Shown piece by piece: positions 1 through 49,720 of a stretch of DNA of 64,000 bases. The DNA lies in assembly GCA_051294375.1 (NCBI GenBank), contig CM119267.1:20089476-20153475 (forward strand). The letters run 5' to 3'. The translations under genes and the position numbers were made by a program. The notes beneath the pieces were generated by a model. It saw nothing but the letters and a program-made list of their open reading frames with translations. It made no database searches and was not told where the DNA came from. The stretch is from Paraspadella gotoi (lineage: Eukaryota > Animalia > Chaetognatha). Position 1 is the first letter of the stretch; each line of letters starts with the position of its first letter.

Positions 1-3000
1 AGCAATGGGAGAGAAGAGAGGAAAGGGGAAAGGAGGAAAGGGGGAGGAGGGAAGAAGGAGAGGAGCAAGGGGGAGGAGGATGAGAGGGAAGAGAGAGAAT
101 AGGGTGAAGGAGCGGGAGAAGAGCTGAAAAGAGAAGATTGCAGCATAGCACTCATCAAAATGTAAAATGTCTGATTGCGCCGTTTACTTTATCGGGGAAA
201 AAACTACATAATAAAACATTTTGTTTCAGGCGTCGAGCCTCTTGTAAATTATTATCTTTCGCAACGAAATAGAAAGATACGAAAAGGAGTTCAAAACATT
301 TGACATGGATAAAAATAATTGTGAATTCTAAAATCAATATTTTACGAAAAATTAAAAGTACTAAGAAGTTTAAATCTAAGCTCCGAAAGGAATAGTTTCA
401 CTAATTTTCCTTTTACATAACGATGACCATTAAATTAATCGGCTCTCTTTGTTTTTCCTTCTCCCCACCAACCTCGATCTGAAGTAATAAGCGTGACCAG
501 GGCGGGCGTTTTGGCCTTCCAAGAAGTCTCGCATGCCGAGTCTTGTTGGAGCAGACGATTATCTTGTCCAATCGAAGGCAGAGGTTTGAGTAACGTCTGC
601 AGTAGAGTGTGCTCGGGGCCTCACATTCCACTGCAATGGAGAGAAGTATAAATTAATATTATCTTTAAAGACTTAGGAAACGTCTATAATAACCAAATTA
701 TAAGTCGATAATTTAGGATCAGGAATAGGTTTAAAAGTTAAAATATCAACTAAGAATTTATAAAATTTTAACTAAAAAAAATATCCAGAGAGCTGGGTTG
801 ACGAACTCAAGATACGAAAAACTTGTAAATAACTAACATTTTGTAGTGTTCTCTGAGTTTACGTGTCGTTGGACAGAAATGCGGGAAAACACGCATCGAC
901 ATCGAGTAATTGCGTCCGCCTGAAGAAATGACATGAGAATTGACGAGTTAACGTAATCATGATCGAAAACAAACATATTCTTATTTTTTTCTTCGAGCAA
1001 ACAGAGATACCCGAACTGCACTTATTGCTTCGCTCGGTGAACTTTGGTCATCGTTTATCCTCCATCAGAGAGAGTCGACGTGCTCCTTAAGACGGCCTTG
1101 GATGTGACTCGATCACGTCCAGGACCTGTAGAAAGGAAATACAATGCTTTCGAGCGTAGGGGTATTGCTTGGTAGTATAGTGTTGAACGCACTTAGCGTA
1201 AAGAATGAAGTGAAAAATAAAACATGATTGATAATACCGGGTACTTGCTTAGACCCGTGACAAGAGACAAGTATTATTGTTATGAAGGTTTCAGTGATAG
1301 GACGTTGCAGATGCATAAGGCAGTCCACTGAAGCGCTTCGGATCAGCGTACATCATGTTAAGCGGGTTAGCGCCCCCGTCCCTGCTACTGCAGACGGACC
1401 AGAAGAGCGCACGGCTAGAACCCGACCTCTTGGTTTTGGGAGAGCGGAATGTACTTGCTCCGGCACAAAAATGGGCCGTGATGAACGGTTAGGTGGTTTT
1501 TATTCCACAATACATCCCTCCCGTAGAATGTCTGTTTGCGTTCTCAGTGAATATGTTTTGTTGGTGAAAGTGCATCACGCAAGCTTTGAGGCAGTGTGCT
1601 GATGTGTTGTGGACGGAAGTGCATCGCCAGGTTGAGGCATGTCGCCTGAAATTGTTTGGGTTGTTGCTGTGTGTTCGGAGTCGGGCTTCAACCAATGAAG
1701 AGCAGTAAATTATTGTTATGAGTTAGTGATAGAACGATTCATATAAGCGAGTCCTGAGCTTCGATGCAGGTGTAGCATCATAGTTACAGGCGGTTAAGCG
1801 CCGGTTACGTGGCGAGACGAGACACCGGCTAGAACCCGGCACCTTTTGGTTGGGTAGCGAAATGACTGTCCTCGCGAATGGCCTTGATAACGGTTGGTGG
1901 ATTTTATTCACATGGGACAAAAAAAAGAGATTCCAAAAAGCACAAAATGTACAAGGTGTGTGTAATCGACCGCGGATCCGGATCCATGTCTGTAGTCCGG
2001 CCTTGGGGGCATGTAAGTTGCAATGCAATCGCGGAGCTACATGTCCTACTCAGTTTTTCTGGGCTCTCGTGGGAAAGGTAGTTTCTTGACGACATGGGCC
2101 GACGGCGTAGGCCACAAGGCTTTTGAAGTGTTAAAAGTGACTGTGCGGCGGAGGTTCTGCTCTGTTACAGCCTAGATTTTTTATGTGGTTGATCGAATAT
2201 TGATAGCAATTACACGAAAAAAAAAAAAGATCAACAAGGTAAAATTTTAATTGAAAAAAAAAAGTTTTTATAATTCTCCCGTTTAATACCAGAAGAAAGG
2301 TAAAATGAATGTAGTAATTTATTAAAAAATTTAGAAGTAACATCTGAATTATTAGATAAATAAAGAATATTGTTTAAAAAAAGAAAGCATATATGATTGT
2401 AATAATAATATACGATTAGAAATACATAAACTTCATAAAATTATTAAAATAATTAAAATATGAAAAATAAAAAAATAGTGAAAACAGTGATTGCATCTTT
2501 AATAAAAGACTGGTGCCCACCAAAAGAATAGCGGGTGATGATGATACATGTTATAGATCGGGCGAGCGGCGTCGCCGAAAGTCGTCGGTGACGTAGGAGG
2601 CATCTTGTCGATCACGCGAGAGATCACGTAGTTGTTTAGGGGTTTGATCGTTGAAAAAAAAGAAGCCAAGAGCATATTTTTTTTTTTGTTTTTCAATAGA
2701 ATTTTATGATTTTTTTATTTCTAAGCAATCAGAAAGATTTTTAATTGGAATGAATAGAAAATTTAATCTTATATTTTTTTATATATTAAATGGATTTTTA
2801 AATTTGCAAATTTTATAATATTAAATTTCTAAAGTTCAATATCGGACGATTTTTCTTTAGCTCACGTCTCACCTATTTTGAGTCAGTTTAGAACATTAGC
2901 TCCCCACCCGCGCTACGAAAAGAGCTACTTGATAGGGTCGCCGACAATTAGATGCCCCTTTGTGCATTTGACCTGCAGAGACCAGAGGCTTACCGAATAG

Positions 3001-3630
3001 GATTCTTAAATTCACAAAAATTAAAAATCGAAAGGGAGGAAAAAAAAAAGAGAAACGGATTACTGAATAAGAAGATCAACGGCGAATTTGTTAACTCGAT
3101 TCAAATAAATGATTTTGGTTACAGATCGACCTCTTCTTCGCTCTCAACACTTTCAACTCCTTTGTTTTCATCGTTATGATACAGTAGTCCACTAGTCAGT
3201 ATAGCATTCTTGTCTGAACGGTATAGTGAGTAAACAGGCCAGCGGGATAAATACTTTGTTTATTGACATATCAAGACTAACGATTATTTCCGATCGGTAT
3301 TTTCATATGTCGTCAGTCCTTTAATGGGCATATGTTTTACGCATTGTCTGCTATTCTTGTTGCTCTAATAGTCCGCAGCTCGCGACCCCCTTTAAATCGC
3401 ATTTTAAATCTAGTCCTAAAATTCCTACCCTGTCTCAAACTTGTCCTTACTTTGACATCGTCGCGGGACGAGGGTGGACCATTTGACGAAAGTAAGACTT
3501 GACGCTCTGACTGATTGTCGGGTCGGCCTCAGATTCGTGAAGACGTCGAGGGAGGTCGCCACTTTACTGTCGAAATCGGATTGAGACTTTAATCCTCATT
3601 CGCATATTGCAGTAACTATCAAACAGAGCT
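1..3630. repeat. Noisy direct duplicate of 11139-14160 (middle exons of the M13 peptidase gene); probable second haplotype or assembly artefact
   Basis: Collinear throughout with 11139-14160 (e.g. the VNAYYFRS exon near 470-630 vs 11590-11750), differing mostly by scattered 1-bp indels typical of raw long reads. Confidence 0.85.
1258..1914 (-). mobile_element. Full-length TRIM, family 1 (LTR - ~180 bp internal - LTR)
   Basis: Two noisy copies of the 234-bp repeat (1258-1512 and 1696-1914). On the minus strand the 5' LTR end CTCTTCA is followed by T-TGGTTGAAGCCCGAC (PBS-like, 1680-1694). GGGAGGGA (PPT, 1515-1522) plus TG precedes the 3' LTR. Confidence 0.75.
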
Positions 3631-6600
3631 CGGAATATTCGCTAAATTCAAACATACATTGGAACAAGTGAATGGATTCCAATTTTTATTAAATAAACTT
3701 AATTTACCCCCAGAGGGCGTTCCGCTATGCGACGCAGGCTTCAATGGAGTCGCCATCTTGTGATAGGGAGCCATCACGTCGAAGACGTTGATGTGCATCG
3801 GAGGAACGATCCTGCGGATCTGGCGCGGGAATGATCAATAGATTGGTTGACTTACTGAATGTTTGATTAACGGATTTAATAATTGAATCATTGATGGATG
3901 GATGGATTATATACAATATATATATATCTATAATATATATATATACAAAAAAGAGAGGAGATTGAAGCCGAAACGACGAAAGGACGAAAAACGACGGTGA
4001 AGATGACGGCAAAAGACGAACTCATAAACACTGTCAATGATTTTTTTATTATAAAAACTTTTTTGACATAGTCGTAATAAACTTTCTTTTTCGTTGTTAT
4101 GTGTATTCAGAGGCAATTTTGTTCCTTCACCACATCTGACCACTAATTCTTTCTAACTCTGTGTGGGAAACTTTGCCCTAATCACTCTCTCTTTCTCTGT
4201 AGAGAACAGGCCCGACAGACACGACGCAAATGATTGACGGACGAAGGACGGAGAGAGCGAGTTCGTTATGACCCAGTTGACGGCGGACTGAAAATTGACC
4301 GTACGACTCATTCGCACTCGCTCTTCTTTCTCTCTCTCTTACCTGTTTCTCGCGGCCCTTTCTCTCTAATAATTTAGCTTGTAAAAACTGAAACCTATAT
4401 TGCCTATACAGATTTAATATAAAGCGAGTGAGATAGAGATAAGAGGAGAAAGAAAAACATAAAATTATAAATAAAATCAAACCATGCCATTTCAATTTTA
4501 TTATCAATTCCAAATTTCGAATGTCAGTGCGCCTGCAGACGTATTTGTGCTGGTCGACTTTTAGGAACTCAAATGATTCCAGAAGCAAAGAAACGAAGAC
4601 GACGACCAGAACTCTTTGTACTCTGTACCCTTAAGTGCGCCGATAGTACGGTAGTGGGTTTTTCTGTTTTGAAAAAATTGATTAAGAATTAAATCGTTAT
4701 TCATTCATCTGTTTACTAACTTTACAATAGCATTTCAGTGTCAAAAAGCGGCATATTAATCGTTGAAATTTGTCCCAGTTTTTTCCGTACGATGTTGAGT
4801 TTCCATACACTTTCCGTCTGGGCGCACTTCGTAAGTTCTGACTATTTTTTTTTTCTCAAAAACAAAATTTTTTAAAAAAAAATCAGGAATACGATAAAAA
4901 TTTAAGGTATGAACAAATTTTAAAATTCAAGTTTCTTTTAAGTCAAATCAATTAAGTTAAGATCAAAGTCATAACCCGCCAACAATTAGTACAGTATACA
5001 GAAGAAGGGAAGCGCTCTTTATGCTTTCTCTGAAAATTCAATCTGTTGTGAAGCAAGAGTCAAAGGAGAACCGGAAAGCATATTTCAGGGGTCATGACAA
5101 AATGTTTACAAAATAAATTAACATCCATTGTTCGATTTTTAAGAGGGATTGTGGTTTTTTTTTCTGTACTTTCCTGTGCGTTGATCTGAAAATATAATAC
5201 CACTTATTCAAAATCCTATGTATTAAAAAAAGAGGCGCCAGACGCAGAATTCAGCTNNNNNNNNNNNNNNNNNNNNNNNNNTTCTGCATTAAAAAATAAA
5301 AATTCGAAATTCATGGAAAAAATGACTTCCGAAGTGAAAGTAAGAGAATGAAGGGTATCAGTATTTAGGGGAGATCAATTAAAACATTTTCCAATAAATA
5401 TCTTGTCCTTGTTCGAATTTCAACAAGGAGATGGGACTTTTTTCTCCACTTTCCCGCGCGAAGAAAAATTAATGACTACTACCATTCAAATTCCTTTAAT
5501 GATAGACCCTTAAGCTTATGATATCATTTTTATCACTGGGTCCCCTTAAGAGCGGAAAAGTTAGTTAAGGTAAGAATATAAGCGTTTCCGCCCATTGATA
5601 CTTTTGATATAAAGCTCGATGCAAAATCATGCGGATGATATAAAGAACCATTTAGCATTTTTAATTTCTTATGGGCAAAAAAAATAAAAATCTCAGTTAA
5701 ATCTTTTATTTATAAAATTTTTAATCTCCAAAATCTCATTCCGTATTTTGGCTCGCGATATAAGCGTTAAGAACTGTTCATGTTGTTTGTTTAGCCATGG
5801 AGGGCTGTTGAGTGTTGACAGTGTATCGTGCGAACTGCGAGGAGAAAGTAGCGTCGCACGAAATTCCCTTTTCTCGAAGAAGAAAAGAATGGAGCAGGGA
5901 ATTTGGGTGAGGTAAGGGAGAGGTAAGGGAGAAACTAGGGTTTAAAGCTTTATTGGAGATCGATAGTAACTGTAAATTGCCTAAATGAAAATAATTTTAC
6001 AAGCAAATTTTTCTATCTGAAAAGAAGAAAACGAGCTTTTAAACTCTTGACGGTCCTTGTGCGCTCTCTCAATAAGAGCGCCCTGAAAAGGTACCGCAGA
6101 ATAATCCATACTATTTTAATCTTGGAAATAATTTTTTGGCATCTATATACCAGAGTCCGCACTACCAGGTCTCGAACCCTAGATGCAACACGCCAAAGTT
6201 CCTCTAGCCACGACAATGAGCCAAACTGGACCAAAGGAGAAAAGGTAAGGAGGGTTATTACGGACGGGATTTCATTCTTTTTTTTTTGTTGGACACGCGA
6301 ATCGCGAAGGAAAATCCGAGAAAAGTAAAAGAAGTAAAAAGAAAAGGAGGAGGAGGAGGAGGAAGAGGAGGAAATAAGAAGGCTGCCAAGAAGGCTGTCA
6401 AGTCAAGAATAGAGAAAGAAAACAAATGGGATAACTGTTGAAAGTCAACAGCTAACTGTTCACTGTTAACTTCTGATTGATTCGTAAAAAATACGCGCGA
6501 CATATTGATGAGTTGTATATTGATATTTTAAATATTGCTTTGTTGAAAGGTTCATGAGTCTTGAAATCTAAATCTCGACGGCGGAGGCGATTAAAAAAAA

Positions 6601-7935: not shown

Positions 7936-8773
7936 TCTCGTCGTTCAACCTCGCAACAAGTGATTGGCGCCATCCTCGTCTCCAGAATCTGCATGGCCGC
8001 CATTTTGTCGCAGCTCCGCCTGTAGGCCTGCAGCACTTGAACGGCCTGAAGTGAGGAAGGGTTAGTTTTGGTGAGGTTAACAACGTAGTAATGGATATGT
8101 TAATATGTTAATATTTCTGAATATTTTATTTTATGGAAGGTCATTAAAAAATTTGAAAGTTAACATGAAACAAAGACTAGATTGAGGCGCCTCACGTCCT
8201 TCAACGTTCAGCCAATCCCATTGGCTCAGAGGGGGAATGCACCATCCCAGGCGTTGCGTTCAATCCACAGTTCTAACGACTTCCCTCTGCATTGGCAAAG
8301 TGAGGGTCGGAGGCCCCCCAAAGTCAATGGTCATCAAAAGCAACTTGACTGTTGCCATAAGAATTTATTTACATCCGGAAATTATCCGTATTTACATATT
8401 CCATATTATAAATAATCGTAATTAATTAAAGTTCAATAAAAAAAAGCCAAAAAAAGAGATACTATAACGCTTTTCCCATAGTTCATCTCGCCAATCAGTT
8501 AGATGCCATGCCACTCGGAACATCTAACTTCTAAGTCAATCTTGCCCTTTTTTGATAAGGAAATCCCTACAGTTATTTCAAACCAACTTTCGACAGTCAA
8601 TTGCACAAGTCAAATCCTCCAACTCGCTCATTCTCGCACTCGCTACAGTACATCCTCGCCTGCGCTCCGGTGAAGTCGCCCTTGGAGTAGTAGAGATTGT
8701 CCAGCTGCTTGAGACATGAGCTGCTCTCCTGTCGCACGGAGGCGATCACCTTCTGGAATTGCTCGTCCCTCAT
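6884..8773 (-). CDS. DUF4476-domain protein resembling the PROSER1 N-terminus, with a Pro/Tyr-rich tail; 4 exons (8773-8660, 8045-7950, 7682-7370, ~7122-6884)
   Basis: Spliced translation MRDEQFQKVIASVRQESSSCLKQLDNLYYSKGDFTGAQ/AVQVLQAYRRSCDKMAAMQILETRMAPITCCE/VKYILLAIPFPRQRLQALRHLIRAIVD... aligns by eye to PROSER1 (MDKKSFEMVLDEIRK...GYFSSEQVVDLL...[22 protein letters not shown]). Exon phases are compatible. The last exon needs one frameshift to reach the stop at 6884. Confidence 0.7.
8188..8362 (+). mobile_element. Family 2 LTR remnant with intact A/B boxes and deleted twister core
   Basis: TGGCTCAGAGG (A box, 8222-8232), GTTCAATCC (B box, 8258-8266), then GGGTCGGAGGCCCCC and GTTGCCATAA shared with 42324-42534 and 39362-39458. 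Confidence 0.7.
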
Positions 8774-9568: not shown

Positions 9569-12500
9569 CTACCAAATGACGCATCGCTTTTCCGGCGCCA
9601 TTTTACTTCCGGTTCGGCAACCGAACGCGTCCTGGAATTGCGGCATGAGCGACGGCGGCGCCATAGTCCGTACGGATCCAGGGGCGTGGGGATCGGTCTT
9701 GATGCCAGATTCGACCGCCTCTGGTCGCGTCTTTTGGCACCAAACCTACGAGTGGTTGAGGTTGGGGAGGAAATGTTATATGCTAGAAATAATTACAAAT
9801 ACGATTTTAATTAAACAATGCATATTGTGTATATTCGTATTTAAAATTAATTTAAATTAAATTATAAGTATTACTCCGATGATCATTTGTCAACCTGGCC
9901 GTATGCGACGAAAAATGCCTGATCGACATCTAGCGGTACTCCCGGGAGTTGTTCCTCCTCGCCGGCCCCGGATTCTTTCCGACGGCGCAACCATCTCCGG
10001 CGGTATGCGTCGTAAGCGAGGCCGAGACCACCCGTGTCGGCGATGTTCTCACCCTGAGTAAGTTCCCCACGAACCTGCGGGGTTTAATCAACGAATTTTT
10101 CGATTTTTTTTTTTCTGCTTTAAAAAAATAAGTTTCGAATCCGTTTTTATGATTTAAAGGACTTGTTACTACAAAAATTCTCAACTGGCCGGTTAGCTCA
10201 GTTGGTTAGAGCGTGGTGCTAATAACGCTAAGGTCGAGGGTTCGAGCCCCTCACTGGCCATCAAAATATTTTACTTTTCACGTCTTTGGGGGAAAACGGC
10301 AGCAGAATTTTGGCAACTCGTGAAAAATCCGTTTCTCCGGTCAACTGGCACATTACGTATTTTAAAATCCGATCAATTCTAAAATTTTTAGCTGTCAGCT
10401 TGAGAAGAAAAATAATATATTTTTTTTTAGATTATGCTAAGTCAAAGTTTTAAATATGTCAAAGTCAAAGTCTTCACGGGGGGCTTTATAAATATATAGA
10501 ACATACTTGTAAACCGTTGACGTAGTATTTGTCGTAGTAGTCGACCATACATTCCGTCTTCTTCTTGAACGCCACCCACGAATCGTTCGTCCACCAAGTG
10601 TTCATTTTTCCTTCCAAGTCATATTTGGCGCCGCTAGAGGGATCGATTAATCGAGAGTCAGTGATCTTTTGTGTGATCAGTGATAGATTTGTATTATTAC
10701 CTATCGTCAAATGCGTGAGTTAGTTCGTGTCCTATTACGGTCCCGATGGCGGCGTAATTAAAAAACCTGAGGGGGAGGAACAATTAACTTTCATAATACA
10801 TATGATATATTTATACAAGTTCAAATAAACAATTTTAAAATAAACAAAATATCGTATTAAGGGTATAAAAAAATAAATTCAAATGCAGGCAAATGCAAAT
10901 GCAGGCAGTAGACGATGCTGATGGAGGGCATACCAAATATTAAACATATATTACCTATATTTTATATATTTTTATGGAATAAATAAAATTTTTTAACAAT
11001 TATGTGATATACTTTTTGCCTAGATGGTATATTACGGGAGAACTTATAGCTGATCTAACTTGTGCTCACATAGGAAGGTTGAGGTCGTAAAATGGACGCT
11101 GAAGAATTCCTGCCGGAAATACTATGGCGTTCCTGGGGAGCAATGGGGGAGAGAGGAAAGGGGAGAGAGGAAAGGGGAGAGAGGAAAGGGGGAGAGAGAG
11201 GGAAAGAGAGAGAGAAAGAGAGAGAATAGGTGAAGGAGCGGGAGAAGAGCGAAAAAGAGAAATGCAGATTAGCACTCACTCTAAAATGTAAATGTCCTGA
11301 TTGCGCCGTTTATTTATCGGGGCAAAAACTAATTTAATAAAAACATTTTTTTCAGGCGGCGAGGCCTCTTGGTAACATTATTTTTCGCAACGAATAAAAA
11401 CTACGAAAAGGATTCAAAAATTTGACATGATAAAAGAATTGTGATTCATAAAATCAATATTTACGAAATTTAATAAAAGTACTAAGAAGTTTAAATTAAG
11501 CTCCGAAAGAATAGTTTCCTTTTTTCCTTTTAATAACGATGACCATGAAATTAATTCGGCTGCTCTTTTTTTTCCCCTTCTCCCCCACCAACCTCGATCT
11601 GAAGTAATATGCGTTGACCAGGGCGGCGTTGCCTTCCCAAGAGTCTCGATGCCGAGTCTTGTTGAGCAGACGATTATCTTTGTCCAAATCGAAGGCGAAG
11701 TATTTGAGTAACGTCTGCAGTAGAGTGTCGCTCGGGGTCACATTCCACTGGCAATGGGAGAGAAGTATAAATTAATTATTATCTTTAAAGACTAGAAACA
11801 TCTATAAAACAAAATTATAAGTCGATATTAGAATCAGGAATAGGTTAAAAGTTAGAAAATATCATAAATATTATAAAATTTTAATAAAAAAAAATCCAGA
11901 GAGAGTGGGTTACCAACTCAAGATACGAAAAACTTTGTAAATAAACTTACATTTTGGTAGTGTTCTCTGAGTTTCGTGTCGTTGAGGACGAAATCGGGAT
12001 AACCGATCGACTCGATAATTGCGTCCGCCTGAAATGATGACGAATTGACGAGTTAACGTAATCATGATCGAAAACAAAATATTCCTTTTTTTTTTTCGAC
12101 AGAACAGAAGATCACCCGACCCTCACCTTTGCTTTCGCTCTGACTTTGGTCTCTTTATCCATCCAGTCGAGAGCGTCGACGTGCTCCTTGAAGACGGCCT
12201 TGATGTCCTCGATCAACTCCAGGACCTTAGGAAAGGAATACAATCTTTCAGCGTAGGGTACTCTGTATATAGTGTTGGAACATTAGCGTAAAAAATAAGC
12301 GAAAATAAATGATTGATAAATCGGGACATTGCTTAGACCTGAAGAGACAGTAATTATTGTTATGAGTTAGTGATAGAACCGTTCAATATAAGCAGTCCCT
12401 GAGCTTCGGATCAGGCTGTAACATCATGTTACAGGCGGGTTAAGCGCCCCGTCCCTCTAAACTGCCAGACGACCACCGGGCTAGAACCCCGGACCTTTGG

Positions 12501-15500
12501 GTTGGGAGGCGAATGACTTGCCTCCGGCACCAATGGCCGCTGATGAACGGTTGGTGGGTTTTATTCCACCATAGACCAAAAAAAAAAAAAAAAAAAAAAG
12601 ATTCCAAAAGCACAAAAATGTTACAAATGGTAAGTAAATCAACCAAGCATCGGTCCATTCCTGTAGTCGGGCATTGCATAAGTTGCAATGCAATACCGGA
12701 CTACATTCCTACTCACGTTTTTCTTGCTCTCTGGCGAAAAGTATTTCTTGACGAACATGGCGCCGACGGCCGTGCCCACAAGGCTCTTCGAAAATTTCAC
12801 GCAAGTGACTTTGCGCGGAGGCTTCTTGGCTCCTGTCACCGCCTAGATTTTATTATGGGTTGTGATATTGTACAAATTACAACGAAAAAAAAAAGATCAA
12901 AAAGGTAAAATTTAATTGAAAAAAAAAGTTTTTATAATTCCTCCCTTTAAACCAAGAAGGTAAAATACAATGTAGTAAATTTATTAAATAAATTTTAGAA
13001 GTAACATAATTGAATTATTAGATAAATAAAATATTTTTAAAAAAGAAAGCAATATATGATTGAATAAATAATATAGATTAAATACTAAAACCTTCATAAA
13101 ATTATTAAAATATTAAAATAGAAAAATAAAAAAATAGTGAAACAAGTAATTTGCAAATTTTCATAAAAACAAGACTGTCACCACCAAAAGAAAGCGGGTG
13201 ATGATGATACCAGGTTATAATCGGCGAGGGCGTCGCGAAAGTCGTCGGTGACGTAGGGCGCCATCTTGTAGATCACGCGAGAGATCACGTAGTTGTTTAG
13301 GGTTCTGGATCGTTGAAAAAAAAAAAGAAGCACAATTTATAATATTAATTTCTAAATTCATATTCGGACGATCTTTTCTTTTAGCTCACGGTCTCACGCT
13401 ATTTTATCCAGTTTAGAACATTGCTCCACCCCACCTCCTCGAAAAGAGCTCTTTAGGGTCGCGACAATATTGCCCTTTGTTCATTTGACTGCAGAACAGA
13501 GGCTTACCGAGATAGGATTTTAAAATTCACAAAATTAAAAATCCGAAAGAGGAAAAAAAAAAAGAAGATTACTGAATAAGAAGATCAACGGCGAATTTGT
13601 TACTCGAATTCAAATAAATGATTTTGGTTACCAAATCGACCTCTCTCGCAGTCGCTCTCTCTCGCTATCACACTTTTCAACTCCTTTTTTTCATCGTTAT
13701 GATACAGTAGTCACTAGTCAGTACTAGCATTCTTGTCTGACGTATAGTGAGTAAACACGGGCCACGGCATATAAGTTTGTTAATTGATATCAAGACTAAC
13801 GATTATTTCCGACTCGGTATTTCTATGTCGTCAGTCCATACTGCATATGTATTTACCATTGTCTAGTCTATTCCTTGGTTGCTCTAAATATCCCAGCTCC
13901 GACTCCCCCCTTTAAATCCGCACTTTTAAATTCTCAGTCTAAAATTCCTACCCTCGTCTCAAAACTTCGTCCTTACTTGACATCCGTCGCGGCGACGAGG
14001 TCGACCAGTTTGACGAAGTAAGACTTGACGCTCATGATGATGTCGGAGTCGGCCTCCAGATTCGTGAAGACGTCGAGGAGGTCGCCCCACTTTACCTGTG
14101 GAAATCGGATTGAGACTTTAATCTCATTCGCATATTGTAGTAATTATCAGACAGCTCGGTTACGCGCGAAGGAGAGATATTTTGGACTTGGGCGTACTTT
14201 TAAAAAGACTTTTAAAAAGACAGACGGAGTGAAGACAGACTGCCAACTTACGAATGTGAAATTTGATTTAAGATCGGCGAATGGAAATTTGTTGTAACTC
14301 TTTGTCGGATCTCGCTGCTCTGGGTCGTGGGGGAGCGGCGTGATCTGGAGTAGGAAAGGGATGGTTGATAATAATGACGGGGGAATCAAAAAATCACTCG
14401 GTCGCCGATAGTAGTGACAATTTATAATTTTATGGTGGACTAAAATCCACCAACCGTTCATCAGCGGCCATTGGTGCCGGAGGCAAGTCATTCGCCTCCC
14501 AACCCAAAGGTCCGGGGTTCTAGCCCGGTGGTCGCCTGGCAGTTAAGAGGGACGGGGCGCTTAACCCGCCTGTAACATGGTGTTACAGCCTGATCCGAAG
14601 CTCAGGGACTGTTTATATTGAACGGTTCTATCACTAACACATAATAATAATTACTGTCTCTTCACTTGCAATTTTTCTTCTGAAAATAAAACTCACGTTG
14701 GCGATTTTGACTTCGAAATCCCAGATGATCTTCATGAATTCCTCGGCGTCGGTGTCGTTCAGCCCCATCAACGTCCCGAGGCGTTGAGTGTAGTTGCGGA
14801 AGCCGACGCAACGGGTGCTGTTCGGTTCCATGTAGTATTCGGGGGAGTTGAGATGAAGACCATCCGGTGATATCTGGATGAGGGGGACGGGGAATATTTG
14901 CTGAGATGATATATATTTGATGAAAAAGGGCAGCAAGCAGCGCACTGTGCGCAGCGTGCTCACTGTAAATTAAAAAATAGTCATCATTATCGAACTCTCG
15001 GCCCGGCGACTATTTTCAGGGTATGGACGATCCTTTTGCGCAAAACAGCAATTTTTCGACACAATATTCCCACTCGACACCCTTACTCTCCACAACTGAG
15101 TCCACAACCGCGCCCACAACCGCGCCCACACTCGACTCACGTGCAGACGATTTCGCGTGGGTTCCTTCCCGTCGTCGCCCACGTAGTAGACAAAGAAGGG
15201 TGAGGCGCCGTAATCGAAGATGACGCTTTTGATGGCGGCGTCGAAATTCCACGACGCGCTGGTCCACGCCGATTTTCCGCGGGCGGCGTCGTAGCTCCAT
15301 CCGCCGAGGCGGGCGATGGCCTCTTCCAACTGTGAGGAGTGTGAGAGAGTTGGTGAGATGAGGGATAGATGTGAAGGGGTGAAGATATGCATGATATTAT
15401 TGGTACAAGTATAACAATTGTTCATTCATTTAATAAATAAGCTAACTTGCCCCAGACTTTGTACAGGCTTTGGTGGTTTAAGGCCTCACATCACTCTTAC

Positions 15501-19902: not shown

Positions 19903-20555
19903 CGAGAGAGAAGAGAGAGAGAGAGAGCGAGAGAGAGGAGACGTCAATACTTAAGACTTGATCGTCTGGGACAGCGGTGGCAGCCAAGACGGACGAAGTT
20001 GACAAATCACCCAAAATATTAATAAAAACTGACGGGGAACATAAAGATAAAAAAAGCGTTTTCAAATTGTGATGCCTCAAGATAAATTCGATTCTCAAGA
20101 AATAATTACAAATTTCCTGTGACATAAGGCTCCTTGGGAGGTGGAAGTTGGAAAAAATACAGGGTTATCTATTATCCTCGACACATATTCGAGAATCGAG
20201 ATAGTGCTCATCAGATAATCTAATAAAAAAAATAAATTAATCTAAACAAACAGACATTAGAATACATTATTAGAAAAAAATGATATATGTAGTACAAAAT
20301 TTTACATTTTAAAAATTTAAAATTCAAATTGAATTTGATACAGTACATATAATAAATAATAAAACTTGTATAATTTTATATTTAACGATTTAAGCTGACA
20401 AGATTATTAGTGCAAATTTAAAATTATTAATGAGCATTAATTTATCAGTCACTAATTACTGTTGACTTACTTATTTTTGTTAAAGTTTATTCGAATAATC
20501 TGTTAACTAAACATAACTTCGCTATAAAAAAGAATATAAAAGCCTCCAGAGCAAT

Positions 20556-20855
20556 TTTTTTTACAAGCGTTTGCGGGGGAGTTAAAAAAGTAACTCTATA
20601 AAAGGCGGAAGATGTTGATGATATTGGCGAGCCTTCACGCCGATTATTTCAGGAGGATAGACCTTTGGTAGGGTAGTCTGGTGATTTTTTATTTTTATTA
20701 AGAAAATTTTTTTACAAGCGTTTGCGGGGAAGTTAAAAAAGTACTCTATAAAAGGCGGAAGATGTGATGATATTTGGGAGCCTTCATGCCGATTATTTCA
20801 GGAGGATAGACCTTTGGTAAGGTAGTCTGGTGATTTTTTATTTTATTAAGAAAAT
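20556..20855. repeat. Two tandem ~150-bp direct repeats
   Basis: ttttacaagcgtttgcgggg...gtctggtgattttttatttttattaagaaaa occurs twice in a row. Confidence 0.8.
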
Positions 20856-21658
20856 TTTTTTCACGTGCTGTCATGTCGCAGACATCGTTAGCTTTCATAT
20901 GATACCTCACATGATGCATTAAAATTATTTTATGATAGCATTATGACATAAAAAAAATTGCGATAATTTTTTCTGGCAGTCCTCGTAGACACAGCTAAAT
21001 CTTATATTTACATTTGTAATAAGTGGGACCAATAAATTTTGATATATTGATGTATATATATCAATGTTGATCTTCAGTATCATAAATATTGACGAAAATA
21101 ATTTTTTTAGATTAATTTATTTTGAAATTTATTGTCAGAATTGATTTTTTTTTCATTAATTCAAATAAATATACAGCGGTCATGCACTGATTCCAATTCT
21201 GTTGGGTTTAGCACATAACGAAAAAAATAACTTGACGTCGTAGTCAGAAATAATAGCAATTATTCCAAATTTTTTCTTAAAATTTATTATCATTTTTGTT
21301 TCTGACTGTTTTTGCCAAACATGCCCTTTAAAATTAGAAAAATAAAGATTAGCTAATGAAACTACAAAGTCTTAGGTACATTTCGTTGCCGGAACAAAGA
21401 AAATTCATTGATATCATAGTTTCAATATGGAGCCTTGAAATACCTCATTTTCTTCGTAATTTACCCCTTTATTGATAAGAGCCTTGTATTATAATAAAAA
21501 ATGAAAACAATAATTTAACCATACAGCTACATGCATTAGCGTGTTATTGAAAGATTGTAGTTGTTTTTAAATAAATTTTTTTGTGATAATCCTTTTGTTT
21601 GTTGTTTAAAATAGATTAGAGGAAAAACTAAATTTTTTCGCGCTTTAACATTTATTTT

Positions 21659-22948
21659 TTATTGAGCCTACTGGCGAAGCCGGTTCAGGCTCGATATTGA
21701 TTCGGGTGAGCTTCTTTGTGACGTTCGTCGTCGTCGTCGTCGGCGCGTCACGCATTTTTATATAAAAACTACTACGCTTTTATAGTTTTGGCTGTGACTT
21801 ACCGTTTTTTTAAATAAAAATTATATAAATTATCAATGAAGTTTTATAAAAGTGTGCGATCATAGTAAGTTAAAAATTTAGATATGGTTTCTCATCTTGA
21901 AATAGCTCTGAAATTTTATATTAATATTGGATTCAAGTATTTTTTGTTTGAATTTCCACTTCATTATGATTTACTGCAATATGCAAATGAAATTATAGTA
22001 CTCATTATAATATCCAAATTAGTATATAGAAATGGCTTAATCTAATTTACATATTGCAGTATATAATATTGAAGATGAAATTCAAAATTTTTTTTAAAAA
22101 TCTATAATAAAAATGGTAAATCAAAGGACCTTTTTAATGAGAAGCTATATCTTAATTTTAATACAAATAAAAATAAAATCTTTTACAAGCTATGATTGGA
22201 AAAATTGTAAAAATTTCTAATTGTAAACAATTGTAACATTTTTTTTATTCTTTTATTTCTTTAAATTATATATAAATTTTTTTCTTATTTTTGTCAGTAG
22301 CTGCCTTTTCTGAACCCTTTAAACGAGTTTTCATTCATACAATCAATGTCAATCTCATTCATTTTTAATAATATGCAAAAAAATAAGGTTTTCAACCTCA
22401 TTTTGAATTAGATGAACAAAAGACTTCAGTCTTATTTCAGTTGAAAAAAAAATAGAAAGTTAATTGATGCTTAATCACACTCTAATAAAACAATTTTATT
22501 TTTATCACGCCACTTTTTTTCTTAATACAAAATTCCAAGTTTATTTCCGAGATTTTGTGATTTTTATTTTTTTCTTTCTAAAAACTTTTATTATTATTTA
22601 TTTTTCTCTCTATATTTCTCTCTCAATAAACTCTCTGTCGCTCTCTCTCTCTCTCTTTCTCTTCTCTAATTAACTCATCGCATCAATGAATGACTAGCAT
22701 CGCATCAATGAATGATTATCATCGCATCAATGAATGACTATCATCACATCAATAAATGATTATCATCCGATCAATGAAGTACTATCATCACATCAATGAA
22801 TGATTATCATCGCATCAATGAATGATTATCATCGCATCCATCATTGGTTATCATCGCATCAATCCTTGGTTATCATCGCATCAATATTTGGTTATCATCG
22901 CATCAATATTTGGTTATCATCAAAAGCAGGCTCGATCCCTATTGCTTT
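21659..22948 (+). mobile_element. Possible HINE-like element containing a ~21-bp minisatellite
   Basis: T-run then ATTGAGCCT (21661), inverted AGGCTCGAT (21687), (CGT)n, and a 3' AGGCTCGAT (22928). The (TCATCGCATCAATGAATGATTA)-type array lies at 22675-22920. Confidence 0.45.
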
Positions 22949-22950
22949 TA

Positions 22951-23259
22951 AATTTTTTTATATTGGTTTAAGGGAGAGAGAGAAGGAGGGAGATATTAAC
23001 TTATGTTACTTTAGTTTTTCACTTCTATTCACTGTTGTACATTGCCAAATGTATTGATCTCTCTCTCTCCCTCTCTTCTCTCTCTCTTTCTTTTTCACCA
23101 ATCTCAAATTCACTCACTCTCCTTCCCTTCCCTCACTTTCTCCTGTCCTAACATCTGACCACCGTCCTTTACTCAATTTCTTTGTTGGAAACTCTCTCAC
23201 TCTCTCTCCCTCAATATCTCCCTCCTCTCTCTCTCCCTTAAACCAATATAAAAAAGTTT
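22951..23259. mobile_element. MITE-like element with ~45-bp terminal inverted repeats
   Basis: tttttatattggtttaagggagagagagaaggagggagatatt at the left end and aatatctccctcctctctctctcccttaaaccaatataaaaa at the right end. Confidence 0.65.
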
Positions 23260-29618: not shown

Positions 29619-30700
29619 ATGGAGCAGAGTTTCCGCGAAAGTCACGTGATCGACGTCCACAGAGAGGACGCCAAGCAACAGTCTATGGAACTCGAGCTTA
29701 TGTTGAAGGAAACCAACGACAACAACAACAGAAACGATAATCGAGGAAGTCAGTTTTTTTTTTGTTTTTTTTTTCTTCTTTTTTTTCTCATTTCTATAAA
29801 AGAATTTCATTGTGCTCACGCTGACCTACCCCACTGGTGATTGTGAAACTGTTATGGTCATGCTGCTTGAACACAGGCTGAACAATTGAGCAATGAATCG
29901 ATTTCGAGATTCAGCCGGGAATATTTTCTTTTGCGTTTTCAGGGAATTTCTACAAGGATGGTGTGAATGTTAACCAGGATGGTAAGTTTTTTTATACTAG
30001 CATAGCATTATATTTGAAAAAAAAGTAACATAAAAGCAGTTATATACATTATAACATTATAAACATATAAGCCCTATTGGAAAACAGGTTGTTTCGCTAT
30101 AAATATCATAATGCTAACACTTCAACTCTTAACTATTGACTCTTAACTAAACAAAAAAAATAAAAAAAAAATAAAAAAAAAAAACTAAAAAAAAAATTTA
30201 AAAAAAATTTTAAAAATAAAAAAATTAAAGCAAAAATAAAATAAAATAAAATAAAATATAAAAATTCAAAATCAAAAATATCTAAATCTAAAAACAAAAA
30301 AACTTTTAAAAAATTTTAAAAAAAACATAAAAAAATGCCCTCACCAAAAAAAAACAAAAAACAAAACAAAACAAAACAAACCCTGGCAGAGGAAGAAGCC
30401 ATTGATGAGCAACCTAAGAAGGACGGCGAACCGACGGCCAAACGGAAGAAAATCAAAGGCTGCGCCATCGCCGACATCGTCATGGGCGTTCTCTTTATCG
30501 TCTTCGGCTGCTTCTTGGCGCCCATCATTGCCATCGTCATGGGCATCGTTGCCATCTGCACCAAAAACGACGACAAGGCCTACGTCTTCGCCGCCGTCGG
30601 ACTGGGATTCGCAATCGTCTCGGTCATTGTAGGGATCGTCGTCATCGCCCTCTTGGTCGCCATGGCCTCTGTATTCGATACGTTTTTCGGGTGGGCGTAG
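29619..30700 (+). CDS. Small membrane protein with two to three hydrophobic segments (dispanin/DUF4190-like), 2 exons
   Basis: Exon 2 encodes GCAIADIVMGVLFIVFGCFLAPIIAIVMGIVAICTKNDDKAYVFAAVGLGFAIVSVIVGIVVIALL. It is a clear paralog of 46738-48022. Confidence 0.7.
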
Positions 30701-30711
30701 TAAGGTAAGAC

Positions 30712-31195
30712 GAGAAATGTGGGACGTTAAGCTGGGATATGTGAAATGTTAGAAAGGGAAATGTGGCACGTTGAGAAGGGAAATGTGGGACGTTAAGCTG
30801 GGATATGTGAAATGTTAGAAAGGGAAATGAGGCACGTTGAGAAGGGAAATGTGGGACGTTAGTCTGGGATATGTGAAATGTTAGAAAGGGAAATGAGGCA
30901 CGTTGAGAAGGGAAATGTGGGACGTTAGCTGGGATATGTGAAATGTTAGAAAGGGAAATGGGCACGTTGAGAAGGAAATGTGGGACGTTAGGCTGGGATA
31001 TGTGAAATGTTAGAAAGGGAAATAAGGCACGTTGAGAAGGGAAATGTGGGACGTTAAGCTGGGATATTGAAATGTTAGAAGGGAAATGTGGCACGTTGAG
31101 AAGGGAAATGTGGGACGTTAAGCTGGGATATGTGAAATGTTAGAAAAAGGGACTTGTGGAAAGTTTAAAGGGGAAATGTGAAATGTTGAGAACTG
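30712..31195. repeat. Tandem minisatellite, ~66-bp unit built from three ~22-bp subunits, ~7 copies
   Basis: gaaatgtgggacgttaagctgggatatgtgaaatgttagaaagggaaatgtggcacgttgagaagg repeated. Confidence 0.9.
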
Positions 31196-32761
31196 CAATG
31201 TGAAATTGTATATTCAAATGCGTGGCGGAAGAGTTTTAACCGAGACTGCCGGCAATTTCCCTCAGTCAACAATACAGCGCGAGCACTTTCCGATACAAAA
31301 GTTACGCGTTGTGCACTGTCGAGTTACTCGTGTAGCCAAAAAGATGAGCATGTTAACTCACAATAGTTTCAGCGGTGCTCCCAGATTGGAAGTTGTAAAA
31401 ACCGTGCGTAACGGACGGTAAAGTGTAAATCGAATTTCCCTTTTTTGTTTTTTTCATTTACAAATGTGAATAAATGTGTCACTCTCTCCTTACCAAAGGA
31501 ATAGTACAATTAAATATCTAGTATATTTTTTTTTACTCATCTTTAATTCTGTTCACAACTTTTGTCGATCCCCCTGATCTGCGGAATTAAGGCAAGTCGA
31601 CGGGGAAGCTCAATGGACGGGGAGTTGTCACCGGGAGTCCAAAGGGAGTGTAACAAGAAAATCGGTGAAGGGAAGCAGTGGATATGGGCGCGCGGAAAGG
31701 ATGGGTCAAAAGAGACGTCTAGTTATTAAGTTTTAGTGGGTTAAAGAAAATTATGTGGGAGATTGTATTAACATTGTTTGAGCACTTAGCTCTACACTAA
31801 TTTGTACCTTATAGATTTCACTGGGCGAAGCCATTTCACTCTCAAAAATAAGAATCAATCCAATCACGAGATTTTAATAAAATAATCAGAGCAGAGCAAC
31901 AAGAGTGAGCTATTGAGAAATAAAGAGAGCCAGAGAGAGAGAGCTACAGATAGAGCTCAAGCTGTACAAAAATAATAATTTCAATGATTAGAATTCATTT
32001 CAAAGAGTTACAATATTTCATCATGTTACCTAATGTTTCCTGGGCAATCTCCTAAAAGTTTAACATCTACTTGCCCTTTTATACTTCTTTAAATTTAAAT
32101 AGACAATTAAAAACGACTTTCGACTTTTGAGAATACTACCAATAATTGGATCAGAAAGGTCTCGTCCAATCAGATTTAAGAACTAAATATCAACCAATGA
32201 AATCATAGAATAGAGGACGAGTTTTGAGAATTTAAGCTATTAACGTTATTGGTATTCCATATAAAACCGAATATTAATTTCGAAAACTAATTAAATATTT
32301 CTAAACTATTTAACAATTATATATAATTTTTTTATAGATTAATTTCATTATCTCTATGGAAATAAAAAATTTCGACGTTGTTTTAAAACAAACAACGTCG
32401 ATTTTTTTATTTCAAGGTCAGAAATAAATATATTTTACTTTTCTAGCTATTTAAAGAATATACGGGATTTAAATGCTACGTTTTTTTTTAATATAAAAAT
32501 AGGAGAAAGAAAAGAGCGAAAGTTACGATCCGATTGTATTCGAAATTTTTTGATAAATACACATTTGTCGAAATCGCCTCCATTCCGGATTTCATGATTC
32601 CAGGAAAAAGAGCAATTAGCAATTCGTATTTAATACATCACAAAAGTCTGCTAGCATCGGATACTGAATAGATATTGACATTACATTAGCTAGAAACAAA
32701 ACCAGTGCCCTTCTATTTTTTTCAATCCGCGTTCTACAACGGTCAACAAGAAAAACGATCT

Positions 32762-37530: not shown

Positions 37531-37767
37531 AGAAGAGACAGTTTATAATAGTTATGTGTTAATGACAAGAACCGTTCAATATAAAGCAGTCCTGAGCTTC
37601 GGATCAGACTGCAACAACATGTTACAGCGGGTTAAGCGCCCCGTCCATCTTAACTGCTAGCAGCAACACGCGAGCTAGAATCCGGACCTTTGGGTTGGGA
37701 GGCGAATGACTTGGCCTCCGGCACCATGGCCGCTGATGAACGGATTAGTCGATTTTAATCCACTATA
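37531..37767 (-). mobile_element. Family 1 solo LTR (diverged or noisy)
   Basis: Collinear with the 234-bp consensus. Confidence 0.8.
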
Positions 37768-38259: not shown

Positions 38260-38499
38260 TGAAGAGAACAGTAATTATTGATAATGTCAATGACAGAACC
38301 GTTCAATATAAGCAGTCCCTAGAGCTTCCGGATCAGGCTGTAACGACCCATCGTTACAGGCGCGTTAAGCGCCCCGTCCCTCTTAACTGCCAGACACCAC
38401 CGGGCTAGAACCCCGGACCTTTGGGTTGGGAGGCGAAATGAACTTGCCTCTTGGCACCATGGCCGCTGATAACGGTTTGGTGGATTTGAGTCCACCATA
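38260..38499 (-). mobile_element. Family 1 solo LTR with 4-bp TSD CATT
   Basis: catt|TGAAGAG...CCACCATA|catt. Confidence 0.85.
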
Positions 38500-39361: not shown

Positions 39362-39597
39362 TATTCATACTGCCTCACTGAAAGGTCGGAAGCCCCCAAA
39401 GCCAACAGTGAGATGCCCCATTCCAAGGCATCACAAGGCAACCCCGTGTTGCCATAAGTTGGTGAGCCCTACTAAATCAAACACGCAACCTTTCAGGGTA
39501 CGCTATGGACAAACGCCTATGCCCTGCTGCTTTGGGTACATTTATGACAAACCGCTATGCCCTGGGTACGCCTACGACAACTCCTATGCCCTTATGT
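39362..39597 (+). mobile_element. Family 2 internally deleted LTR followed by PBS and probable internal region
   Basis: TATTCATACTGCCTCAC is joined through TCAC to TGAAAGGTCGGAAGCCCCC...GTTGCCATAAG, followed by T-TGGTGAGCCCTAC (tRNA-Trp-like PBS) and three GGGTAC..TATG..CAA..CTATGCCCT repeats. Confidence 0.6.
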
Positions 39598-42323: not shown

Positions 42324-42534
42324 TGTTATGGCAACAGCCGGGTTGCCTGTGATGCCCGTTGGGATGGGGCATCTCACTGTTGGCTTTGGGGGCTTCCGAC
42401 CCTCAGTGACGCATCCAGTCACTGGCACGGTTACCCTAGGACGATCTCGCTTTGCCAACGCAGAGGGATGGTGTGTTCCCCCTCTGAGCCAATGGATTTG
42501 GCTGAACGATGGTGGACGTGAGGCGGTGTGAATA
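42324..42534 (-). mobile_element. Family 2 solo LTR (B box deleted) carrying a complete type P5 twister motif
   Basis: Minus strand TATTCACACCGCCTCACG...TGGCTCAGAGG...GTTGCCATAACA (TA...CA ends). Confidence 0.75.
42379..42459 (-). ncRNA. Candidate type P5 twister ribozyme (family 2)
   Basis: GTTGGC-AAA-GCGA-GA-TCGT-CCTAGGG-TAA-CCGT-GC-[CAGTGAC TGGATGC GTCACTG]-A[GGG TCGG AAGC CCC]C-AAA-GCCAAC. The copy at ~54810-54840 reads GA-CCGT and CCGC, which improves T1 and P2. Confidence 0.75.
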
Positions 42535-42804
42535 TACCGCCACAATGTAATCTAAAAAGAGTCAAAATTGTATCAACTTTTAGACTGATTTTTTTTACAT
42601 ATTTGATTGCTTTTGCGATTTTGCTAATAATCAACAGTTACGGTAAAGAAAGCCGATGTTTTTCTACGAAATTGTTCATTTTTATTTTATTTTATTCCAT
42701 CTTTCTCGACCTGGTGTCTCCATTCTGATGTCGTCTGTTTTTTTTTTTACAGTTATGTTATGTTAAATCCTAATTGACTTCAAATTGCGCGTTTTCACCG
42801 CCAG

Positions 42805-46261: not shown

Positions 46262-46495
46262 TATGGTGGACTAAAATCCACCAACCGTTCATCAGCGGCC
46301 ATTGGTGCCGGAGGCAAGTCATTCGCCTCCCAACCCAAAGGTCCGGGGTTCTAGCCCGGTGGTCGTCTGGCAGTTAAGAGGGACCGGGCGCTTAACCCGC
46401 CTGTAACATGGTGTTACAGCCTGATCCGAAGCTCAGGGACTGCTTATATTGAACGGTTCTGTCACTAACACATAACAATAATTACTGTCTCTTCA
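46262..46495 (+). mobile_element. Family 1 solo LTR (234 bp) with 4-bp TSD GTAA
   Basis: gtaa|TATGGTGGAC...CTCTTCA|gtaa. Confidence 0.9.
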
Positions 46496-48619: not shown

Positions 48620-49688
48620 NNNNNNNNCCGAGGAGGATTTTTGGGTCAATGGTTCAAAGTGGGTCGAGGAAATCCTGTAAGGGAGGAGGTGAGAGGAGAA
48701 AATATTCTCCCGGGAAAATAACTTTGAGAGAACCGTACAGATGTGACAGAAGGGCGAGTTGAATCGTCTACGTTGTCCCGCTTTTAACGCTTTTCGCTTT
48801 GGAATTGGCACGGACTCTACGAATGGCTTTTATTGGGGCCAATCTCGACAAACAAAGACGTGAAATACATAGTATGCATTAACATGTTTTTTTTTTAAAA
48901 TAGATTGAAAAAACGAACAATCAGCATTATAAAGTGTTAGTGAATTGCATATTGTATATGAATGAGGATCTTCTTTAACTATTGACCAGTTGCTAATAGT
49001 TTTCAGCCCATGTTAATTAATTAATAGAATTATTGAAAAAATCTTTGAAGAAGAGGAGAATATAAGTTTTTTAGTACATAAGGAGAATTATCAATAGTAA
49101 CATAATTACATCTCACCCTCGATCTGGTTCGGCTGCAAATCTTCAGAGCCGGCGTCGACGAGACGTTGCATCCCGAAGACTCAAGAGGGGAAGGAGTCGC
49201 ACGAGTCGCAGAGTCGCCGACGACGTCCGTCAACTTTCGCCAAATCCGGAATCTTCAACCCGGGATCGGATATTCGGAATTGAGGGGCGGACTGAGTCAT
49301 TTTAGGGGTTGGTAAGAGGGGTTTTTAAAGGGGGAGAGGGATGGAGAAGGGATGGGGGGAGCGAGAGAGAGGGATGAAGAGAGAGGAAAAAAGAAACAAA
49401 AAGAAATAAAAGAAAGGAAAGATAAAGGGATGTTAAGTTCGAATTTAAATATATTATTTAGTATTTAAGTTTAATACAAATTAAAAATAACTAAGCCAGT
49501 AACAGAAGTTGTTAAAAATGGATCGAAAGACTTCGGAAGCTATCTTTAATTGAGAACTCGAAAAAGACTATGAACAAAAACGAAGAGAGCCGAAAAACCA
49601 GTGTTCGTCGTGGAAAAATGAAAGGAGAAGGCCGAAACTTTTACAAAATTTCTTAGGATGGATAGAGAGAGAGAGAGGAGAGAGAGAG

Positions 49689-49720
<32 letters not shown>

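Follow-up and report, generated by a model that had tools for sequence, protein, structure and literature searches.

As far as the texts cited here extend, long terminal repeat (LTR) retrozymes are known as plant elements with hammerhead ribozymes (PMC4918200), animal retrozymes as elements that lack LTR features (PMC7229834), retroelement twisters as companions of non-LTR elements of the RTE type (PMC8501958), and the Helenus group of TRIMs (miniature retrotransposons with terminal repeats) as elements without a ribozyme (PMC10886601). The locus considered here lies in 64,000 nucleotides of the chaetognath Paraspadella gotoi (assembly GCA_051294375.1, contig CM119267.1, positions 20,089,476 to 20,153,475 of the forward strand), a stretch that we call the window and to which all positions below refer. 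It holds a 234-nt repeat, very probably the LTR of a non-coding TRIM of ~650 nt, and inside that repeat, at 14539-14612, a fold of the type-P5 twister kind. The reading that we prefer, and to which we would give roughly an even chance, is that such folds in both LTRs of a tRNA-headed TRIM act together as a two-copy ribozyme that excises unit-length RNA for circularisation and reverse transcription.

Helenus TRIMs are short non-coding elements (about 300-1300 bp) with a tRNA-like LTR, a primer binding site (PBS), a polypurine tract and a probable Gypsy helper (Kojima 2024, PMC10886601). The present element resembles Helenus and TRIMp3 in being non-coding and <1 kb long and in having two LTRs with a tRNA-like segment and a GGTTC box B, a PBS, a polypurine tract, many solo LTRs and the 4-bp duplications of the animal Helenus families; it differs in that its LTR starts with TA and carries a twister-like fold 3' of the tRNA-like part, whereas the text of the Helenus study reports no ribozyme and does not contain the word 'twister' (PMC10886601). 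A non-exhaustive search of the supplement to that study (108,717 characters, eleven short motifs) returned no twister-like LTR. With plant LTR retrozymes the element shares a self-cleaving motif in each LTR (a predicted one here), 4-bp duplications, a PBS, a polypurine tract, solo LTRs, a probable Gypsy helper and a double cleavage that would leave no R repeat (Cervera, Urbina and de la Pena 2016, PMC4918200). The plant elements, as that paper describes them, have a type III hammerhead, a tRNA-Met PBS and LTRs of 300-400 bp, occur only in plants and have no tRNA-like part (PMC4918200), whereas the element here combines a twister-like fold with a 234-nt LTR, a tRNA-like head and an intron-rich animal host, and a circular RNA is for it only a proposal. 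By its anatomy, then, the element fits the Helenus TRIMs, and by analogy it would work like a plant LTR retrozyme in which a twister has replaced the hammerhead.

Dimeric type I hammerheads of Penelope-like elements were reportedly described by Lunse et al. in 2017. The hammerheads of amphibian non-LTR retrozymes, whose stem of 1 bp ends in a palindromic tetraloop, cleave efficiently only as dimers, and their RNA is circularised by RtcB (PMC7229834). The likeness proposed here is to a helix that is too short in the monomer, is capped by a palindrome and is supplied when two copies pair; the differences are that those ribozymes belong to another class and sit in tandem non-LTR repeats that have neither PBS nor polypurine tract (PMC7229834). 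The twister T-variants that form the 5' end of the Schistosoma mansoni element Perere-3 (Liu et al. 2021, PMC8501958) likewise present a weak-P1 twister used by a retrotransposon, but they are of type P1, the host element is a non-LTR RTE element and the cut sets the 5' end of the insertion. In the element here the predicted cut falls in the middle of the LTR, and insertions end at the LTR termini. Type-P5 twisters themselves (Rfam RF02684; PMC5408937) share with the focal motif the order of elements, the catalytic G and A, T1, T2, the L4 pattern, P3 and P5, and differ from it in that the focal motif has a self-complementary 6-mer for P1, a P2 strand of 3 nt, a 5-bp P4 closed by A-U, and no Rfam match.

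We regard the 234-nt repeat as an LTR because its copies are flanked by 4-bp duplications, because a two-LTR copy with PBS and polypurine tract exists in the window, and because the junction between LTR and PBS recurs in contigs of sequencing reads. This setting is the main context of the fold, and a preliminary description of the locus had overlooked it. BLAST finds seven copies of the repeat in the window, among which three clean ones are 96.6-97.9% identical; exact 4-bp target duplications surround three of the five clean copies (P about 1e-6) and a fourth has one if a 1-nt shift is allowed, while the focal copy at 14431-14664 has none that is exact. The internal part of the two-LTR copy, 183 nt long, starts with the PBS-like word and ends in a polypurine tract in which 9 of the last 10 nucleotides are purines, as read from this one error-rich copy. 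In contigs of the runs X1, X9 and X10 the PBS word begins with TGG, 1 nt past the terminal CA, and we take it to match the 3' end of tRNA-Trp. This junction (X10 being a second organism) is independent of the assembly noise at 1262-1915, and a contig bridging the internal part and the LTR end was also found in the reads. The sequences on either side of the 1262-1915 element agree with those around the solo LTR at 12340-12573, and the stretch from 1 to 3600 is ~80% identical to 11139-14154 with many gaps, short-read contigs covering only the element within it; the stretch probably is unpolished long-read sequence of the 11139-14154 locus, reflecting full and solo alleles or an assembly collapse. 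A Helitron or HINE assignment, based on an 8-bp inverted repeat and a terminal hairpin, was dropped owing to the PBS, the polypurine tract and the duplications.

In X1, 14,327 contigs fall on the repeat; their depths add up to about 2 million, compared with about 80 for the flanking sequence, and the ratio in X5 is similar; the ratio is not a copy number, and a rough estimate of the abundance of this repeat (family 1) is of the order of ten thousand. In X10, two small contig pieces fall on the focal LTR region and none on the two-LTR stretch. Within the internal part, at 1599-1672, read contigs carry a short tandem repeat of ~48 nt (joints from 1649 to 1617, with 15 letters between). One X1 contig joins 14665 to 14430, with two LTRs in head-to-tail order separated by 2 letters, and could represent a tandem LTR insertion or the trace of a circular template.

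The tRNA-like segment is likely the promoter for RNA polymerase III (Pol III), to judge from its motifs: the AGGTC variable loop, the acceptor stem and box B are present, and box A departs from TRGCY/YGG. Common variants at 14532 and 14535 preserve the pairing of the acceptor stem, and the variant at 14478 restores the A at tRNA position 14. ARAGORN calls the segment only at its 80% threshold, as a 'possible pseudogene' of tRNA-Gly(ccc), and this threshold yields 33 calls in the window; neither ARAGORN at default settings nor the Rfam tRNA model recognises it.

Table 1. Positions in the window of the focal LTR, its twister-like fold, related elements and the host gene.
Feature	Position	Strand	Details
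Solo LTR, focal copy, 234 nt	14431-14664	+	Termini TA...CA; loose contig ends cluster at 14429-14431 and 14664
5' hairpin of LTR	14433-14452	+	Folding, z -3.4
5' arm of predicted 8-bp helix	14453-14460	+	Pairs with 14619-14626, enclosing tRNA-like segment and twister; mean pair probability 0.73-0.98 in three copies
tRNA-like segment, 72 nt	14464-14535	+	7-bp acceptor stem; box A-like 14472-14483; GGTTC-type box B 14516-14526; CCC at anticodon position; degenerate D and anticodon arms
Type-P5 twister-like fold	14539-14612	+	P5 14539-14544/14607-14612, 6 bp
P2', general base, A and T1'	14547-14555	+	P2' GAGG 14547-14550; general-base G14551; A14552; T1' CGG 14553-14555; sequence, roles from PMC5408937
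Self-complementary 6-nt linker replacing P1	14556-14561	+	Self-duplex -8.3 kcal/mol (predicted)
U^AA, P2 and T2	14562-14569	+	U^AA 14562-14564, predicted cut 14562^14563; P2 CCC 14565-14567; T2 GC 14568-14569
P3 hairpin, 8 bp	14570-14588	+	Sequence and folding
P4, 5 bp, with L4	14589-14606	+	A-U closing pair; L4 UCCGAAGC at 14594-14601; sequence and folding
LTR tail, 38 nt, 3' of twister		+	Terminal CA; sequence
Solo LTR, intact twister	12340-12573	-	4-bp target duplication; in M13 peptidase intron, sense
Solo LTR, T1 mismatch	46262-46495	+	4-bp target duplication
Solo LTR, diverged twister	38260-38499	-	4-bp target duplication
Solo LTR, diverged twister	37532-37767	-	4-bp duplication only with 1-nt shift
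Full two-LTR copy, 654 nt	1262-1915	-	5' LTR 1915-1696; internal 1695-1513; 3' LTR 1512-1262; gap-rich, error-rich sequence
PBS-like word and polypurine tract of the two-LTR copy	1694-1683; 1522-1513	-	
Family 2, second two-LTR TRIM	50840-51524	-	Gap-rich; tRNA-like part and type-P5 twister fold in each LTR; PBS-like word 51236-51225
Family 3, solo LTR	42327-42544	-	4-bp target duplication; type-P5 fold 42459-42379; 8-nt self-complementary linker
Exons of membrane-anchored M13 peptidase gene	about 16094 to 9572	-	
GT-AG intron of M13 peptidase gene	14345-14696	-	Holds focal LTR, antisense; spliced junction in X9 contig (loose end 14697 = 14315-14344)

The fold at 14539-14612 has its elements in the order of a type-P5 twister (P5, P2', GA, T1', P1, NAA, P2, GC, P3, P4 with L4, P5'), a linker standing for P1. 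The preliminary description had this order right, and also the predicted cut site, which sequence and a landmark scan both place where it was put, but went too far in taking all landmarks as canonical, since an A-U pair closes L4 and P4 has 5 bp. The consensus T1 consists of three Watson-Crick pairs (PMC5408937), and these are present in the focal motif, as are a GC:GC T2 and the U and A-A positions of L4. The fold is genuine and beyond chance, because the loci found by a descriptor scan far exceed the counts in dinucleotide shuffles: the window has four loci with a perfect T1, where 40 local dinucleotide shuffles average 0.05 each, and under stricter terms for P4 and P2 two remain, against none in 40 of 40 shuffles. 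In read contigs G14551, A14552, the U^AA, T1 and T2 are free of variants at >=3% except at 14553 and 14597. The change at 14597 is a G>A in L4 that would weaken T1, accounts for 11.5% of the depth in X1, 1.7% in X5 and 4% in X9, and possibly marks a subfamily or CpG decay. The T1 mismatch noticed earlier in the 46262 copy is there in the sequence and is not among the variants at >=3%. Engineered twisters without P1 still cleave, as the preliminary description correctly stated (PMC5408937), and imperfections in P1, in P2 (deletions and bulges included) and in P4 are tolerated by natural twisters, ~1,950 of type P1 having been tested (PMC11662667). We class the focal motif as twister-like and not as a canonical member, its self-cleavage being a prediction, and we think it probable that it cleaves under some condition.

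Patterns resembling its core were also sought elsewhere. At least 119 loci in viral contigs have the T1'/UAA pattern, but an L4-like word accompanies it in 2 of the 119 matches listed, about the chance level, and one locus that was inspected lacks P4; in metagenomes there are 48 such loci, one of which has a 4-bp P4 but no P2. BLAST of the 167 viral and metagenome loci against the LTR gave no match at E<=1e-3. All these loci were rejected as twister relatives and attributed to chance.

The absence of an ordinary P1 is borne out, the best intramolecular hairpin of the linker being predicted at +5.6 kcal/mol; the linker itself is 6 nt long and not the 5-nt GCGCT described before, as T1 has three Watson-Crick pairs. 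P1 is likely formed between two ribozymes rather than within one, by analogy with the dimeric hammerheads, and whether cleavage would depend on two copies is on present models a balanced question. The linkers measure 6 nt in family 1, 6 nt in a second family and 8 nt in a third, and have three different palindromic cores; a palindromic inner 4-mer occurs in 6.6% of window words, which gives ~2e-4 for three families if they are independent. The trait common to the three families is this self-complementary linker in place of P1, and not the bulged P2 that had been suggested as a shared structural subtype. The family-3 motif cited for that subtype (ACC against GAGT) was not found by exact or fuzzy scans, and P2 in the other families is different, being either a plain 3 bp (GCC/GGC, 51371-51354) or a 4-nt strand with a C.A mismatch (42446, 54828). 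In the focal copy P2 is indeed short, but the A bulge in CCC/GAGG is only one way of drawing it, a 2-bp P2 with a C.A mismatch being equal in predicted energy (-18.9 vs -19.0 kcal/mol).

T1 has a different triplet in each of the three families, in every case matched by its partner strand (CCG/CGG, UCC/GGA, and CGG with CCG or UCG), which supports the twister fold; MAFFT does not align the families in register. The G-C pair that closes L4 is retained in families 2 and 3. The Rfam Twister-P5 model scores family 2 at 19.6 bits (E 0.13), under its gathering threshold of 37.6, and a covariance model built from three family-1 copies and searched in the window recovered the seven copies and scored family 3 (E 0.12) and family 2 (E 4.5) only weakly among 18 matches, a result not used as proof. 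A related family-3 LTR has its end at 39456, with the same PBS word after it at 39460 (39456-39469). A family-3 LTR variant at 8188-8360 (+) has extra upstream sequence and has lost the core of the twister, the part that lies between P5 and P4, and a family-3 twister fragment (P5 to T2) is found inside another repeat at 50513-50545 (+) and 54805-54850 (-), in both copies of that region. The stretches 54192-54944 and 50405-51835 represent the empty and the filled insertion site of family 2; the empty site holds ~15 additional bases, so that a clean target duplication is not readable there.

In the mechanism that we propose, Pol III would begin in the 5' LTR, at its tRNA-like segment, which lies upstream of the cut, and read through the 3' LTR; no T4 run is present on the element strand of the two clean LTRs checked. 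The linkers of both LTRs would then pair into a 6-bp P1, with one LTR contributing its 5' half and the other its 3' half to each active site, and cutting at both U^A sites, which lie about 417-428 nt apart in the full element, would release ~420 nt of RNA without a terminal repeat. Such an RNA would have to be circularised before tRNA-primed reverse transcription could rebuild two LTRs (as argued in PMC4918200). A host ligase of the RtcB type would close the circle, a host tRNA would prime at the PBS, and a reverse transcriptase and integrase of the Gypsy type would copy the RNA and integrate it, giving rise to a 4-bp duplication. Cleavage of solo LTRs would be poor, which would allow tens of thousands of them to be tolerated in introns in either orientation. 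The circular-RNA route, which is drawn from analogy, seems to us to fall just short of an even chance. More tentatively, and with our judgement leaning against it, one may envisage several families of Pol III-driven LTR retrozymes with an obligate double twister, in which P1 could form in no other way than by pairing of the 5' LTR with the 3' LTR of a single transcript; complete elements would thereby be sensed and a circle-ready unit released only then, and pre-mRNAs with solo LTRs would stay uncut.

A number of observations weigh against the two-copy ribozyme. In place of the four base pairs of a regular P2 the focal motif has a 3-nt strand with two pairs and a bulged third or a C.A mismatch, and a structural study cited in PMC5408937 suggested that an altered length of P2 disrupts the active site. 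The pair closing L4, essentially invariant as G-C in the twister consensus (PMC5408937), is A14593-U14602, and the tolerance data mentioned above are limited to type-P1 twisters (PMC11662667). In Rfam scans, the whole window at the gathering threshold gave tRNA-Ile as the sole match and no twister, the window at E<=5 again gave no twister, hammerheads were likewise absent from the window scans, and the 261-nt LTR region at E<=10 matched neither twister (RF02684/RF03160/RF03154) nor tRNA. Variants at >=3% occupy 5 positions in the 74-nt twister and 15 in the remaining 160 nt, so the twister is not clearly more conserved. The palindrome test was post hoc, the families possibly share an ancestor, and one of the two family-2 linkers, both from error-rich copies, carries a mismatch and is self-complementary only in the other LTR; the only full family-1 copy in the window is error-rich as well. 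In the focal copy a slipped fold that pairs G14550-G14556 with C14565-C14570, placing T1' on the P2/T2 strand, has a predicted probability of 0.73-0.92, and the slipped monomer lies ~7-8 kcal/mol below the native secondary structure, pseudoknots uncounted. The energies are compatible with the dimer model but fall short of proof, because the swapped dimer is predicted at -48.1 kcal/mol against -36.4 for two native monomers, a gain of 11.7, yet two slipped monomers (-52) lie ~4 kcal/mol below it, again with pseudoknots uncounted, and the predicted dimer minimum (-63.2 kcal/mol) is a structure other than the native swap. Finally, the ratio of internal to LTR depth in X9, presumed to be an RNA run and holding the spliced M13 junction, is about 0.07, inside the range of the DNA runs (0.04, 0.15), and gives no sign of abundant unit-length RNA, contig depth being a poor measure of it.

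An unlikely though by no means negligible alternative, the nearest to the preliminary description, is that a single copy of the twister suffices for activity; it would be a naturally occurring 'mini-twister' in which the 6-nt linker does no more than connect T1' with the cut site, and the element would still be a TRIM of the LTR retrozyme kind. The dispensability of P1 in engineered twisters (PMC5408937) and the P1 and P2 imperfections borne without loss of cleavage by about 1,950 natural type-P1 twisters (PMC11662667) speak for it, as does the presence of all catalytic residues and both pseudoknots. In the P1-less tests, though, the cut strand was free, whereas in the focal motif it is tethered by 6 nt; the three different palindromic linkers would be left unexplained, the native secondary structure lies ~8 kcal/mol above the slipped fold, and an intact copy (12340-12573) is present within an intron of the host in the sense direction. 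Cleavage within introns can be tolerated. We also think it rather improbable that the twister is carried along in an inactive or almost inactive state, the TRIM relying for its movement on the usual LTR strand transfer with Pol III transcripts that stay uncut. The three departures from the consensus and the missing Rfam match would be in keeping with this, together with the dominant predicted misfold, the want of clear extra conservation and of RNA enrichment in X9, and the motif search of the published Helenus consensus LTRs, which found no twister-type loop and thus suggests that such TRIMs can move without one; but a young family (with clean copies as similar as those above) that is also abundant keeps the catalytic residues, T1 and T2, and a twister with matched T1 changes is kept in three diverged LTR families.

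Two further readings seem to us very improbable. The preliminary description had proposed that an alternative stem (14538-14547/14560-14570) sequesters the cut site and acts as a switch that keeps the ribozyme off until a signal or a flanking context releases it. The stem can be drawn, as 6 bp, a 1x2 loop and 3 bp, and with P3 and P4 it reaches -19.1 kcal/mol, the same value as the native secondary structure when pseudoknots are left out, but it is not predicted to be populated: when 21 constructs (three copies at seven lengths) were folded, the mean pair probability was 0.00 for the whole LTR and did not exceed 0.08 for nascent fragments, in 21 of 21 cases. The majority allele at 14538, with 54-79% of the depth in three runs, cannot form the outer pair of the stem, the 12340-12573 copy, whose twister is intact, has one of the inner pairs broken, and the slipped misfold, a different structure, is 7 kcal/mol more stable. 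The other is that the 234-nt unit is a tRNA-derived short interspersed element or a Penelope-type pseudo-LTR with a ribozyme, as the tRNA-like head, the mostly monomeric dispersed copies, a 5' terminus of TA and not TG, the one head-to-tail joint in X1 and the lack of a target duplication at the focal copy might suggest. Against it stand the fixed ends, the 4-bp duplications, the lack of an A-rich or simple-repeat tail, the 33 nt of element that precede the tRNA-like part, a PBS beginning with TGG 1 nt past the terminal CA, and a polypurine tract before the second repeat.

A literature search, over full text with few subscription journals, found no twister in an LTR or TRIM and no dimer-dependent twister. 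If the double-twister reading is true, the element would rank as the first LTR retrozyme to be based on a twister, as the first one outside plants and as a natural dimeric twister; it would join two known designs and give eukaryotic twisters a concrete role. The ribozyme class would then be interchangeable in LTR retrozymes, and a twister gated by pairing would offer a simple part for RNA circularisation vectors. As the form is missed by descriptor and Rfam searches, such twisters may be undercounted.

The M13 peptidase gene that surrounds the focal LTR holds one antisense and one sense copy of it, and an argument from orientation bias was therefore dropped. Its introns, the membrane-anchored peptidase and the 4-bp duplications are in keeping with an animal host; protein searches with single exons gave no match, and the protein clusters retrieved were generic M13 ones. 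A genuine tRNA-Ile(AAT) gene at 10187-10260 (+) lies within an intron of the same gene, on the opposite strand. Large gap-rich duplicates of ~80% identity occur at 1-3633 versus 11139-14154 and at 48645-50440 versus 57235-55329; they probably are unpolished long-read haplotigs or gap fills, and mutations read there are unreliable. Two small membrane-protein exons, at 30320-30700 (+) and 46926-47192 (+), have DUF4190 matches under the Pfam cutoff, and the window also contains a 151-nt direct duplication and two minisatellites with periods of 22 and 66 nt (20550-20861; 22653-22951; 30692-31206).

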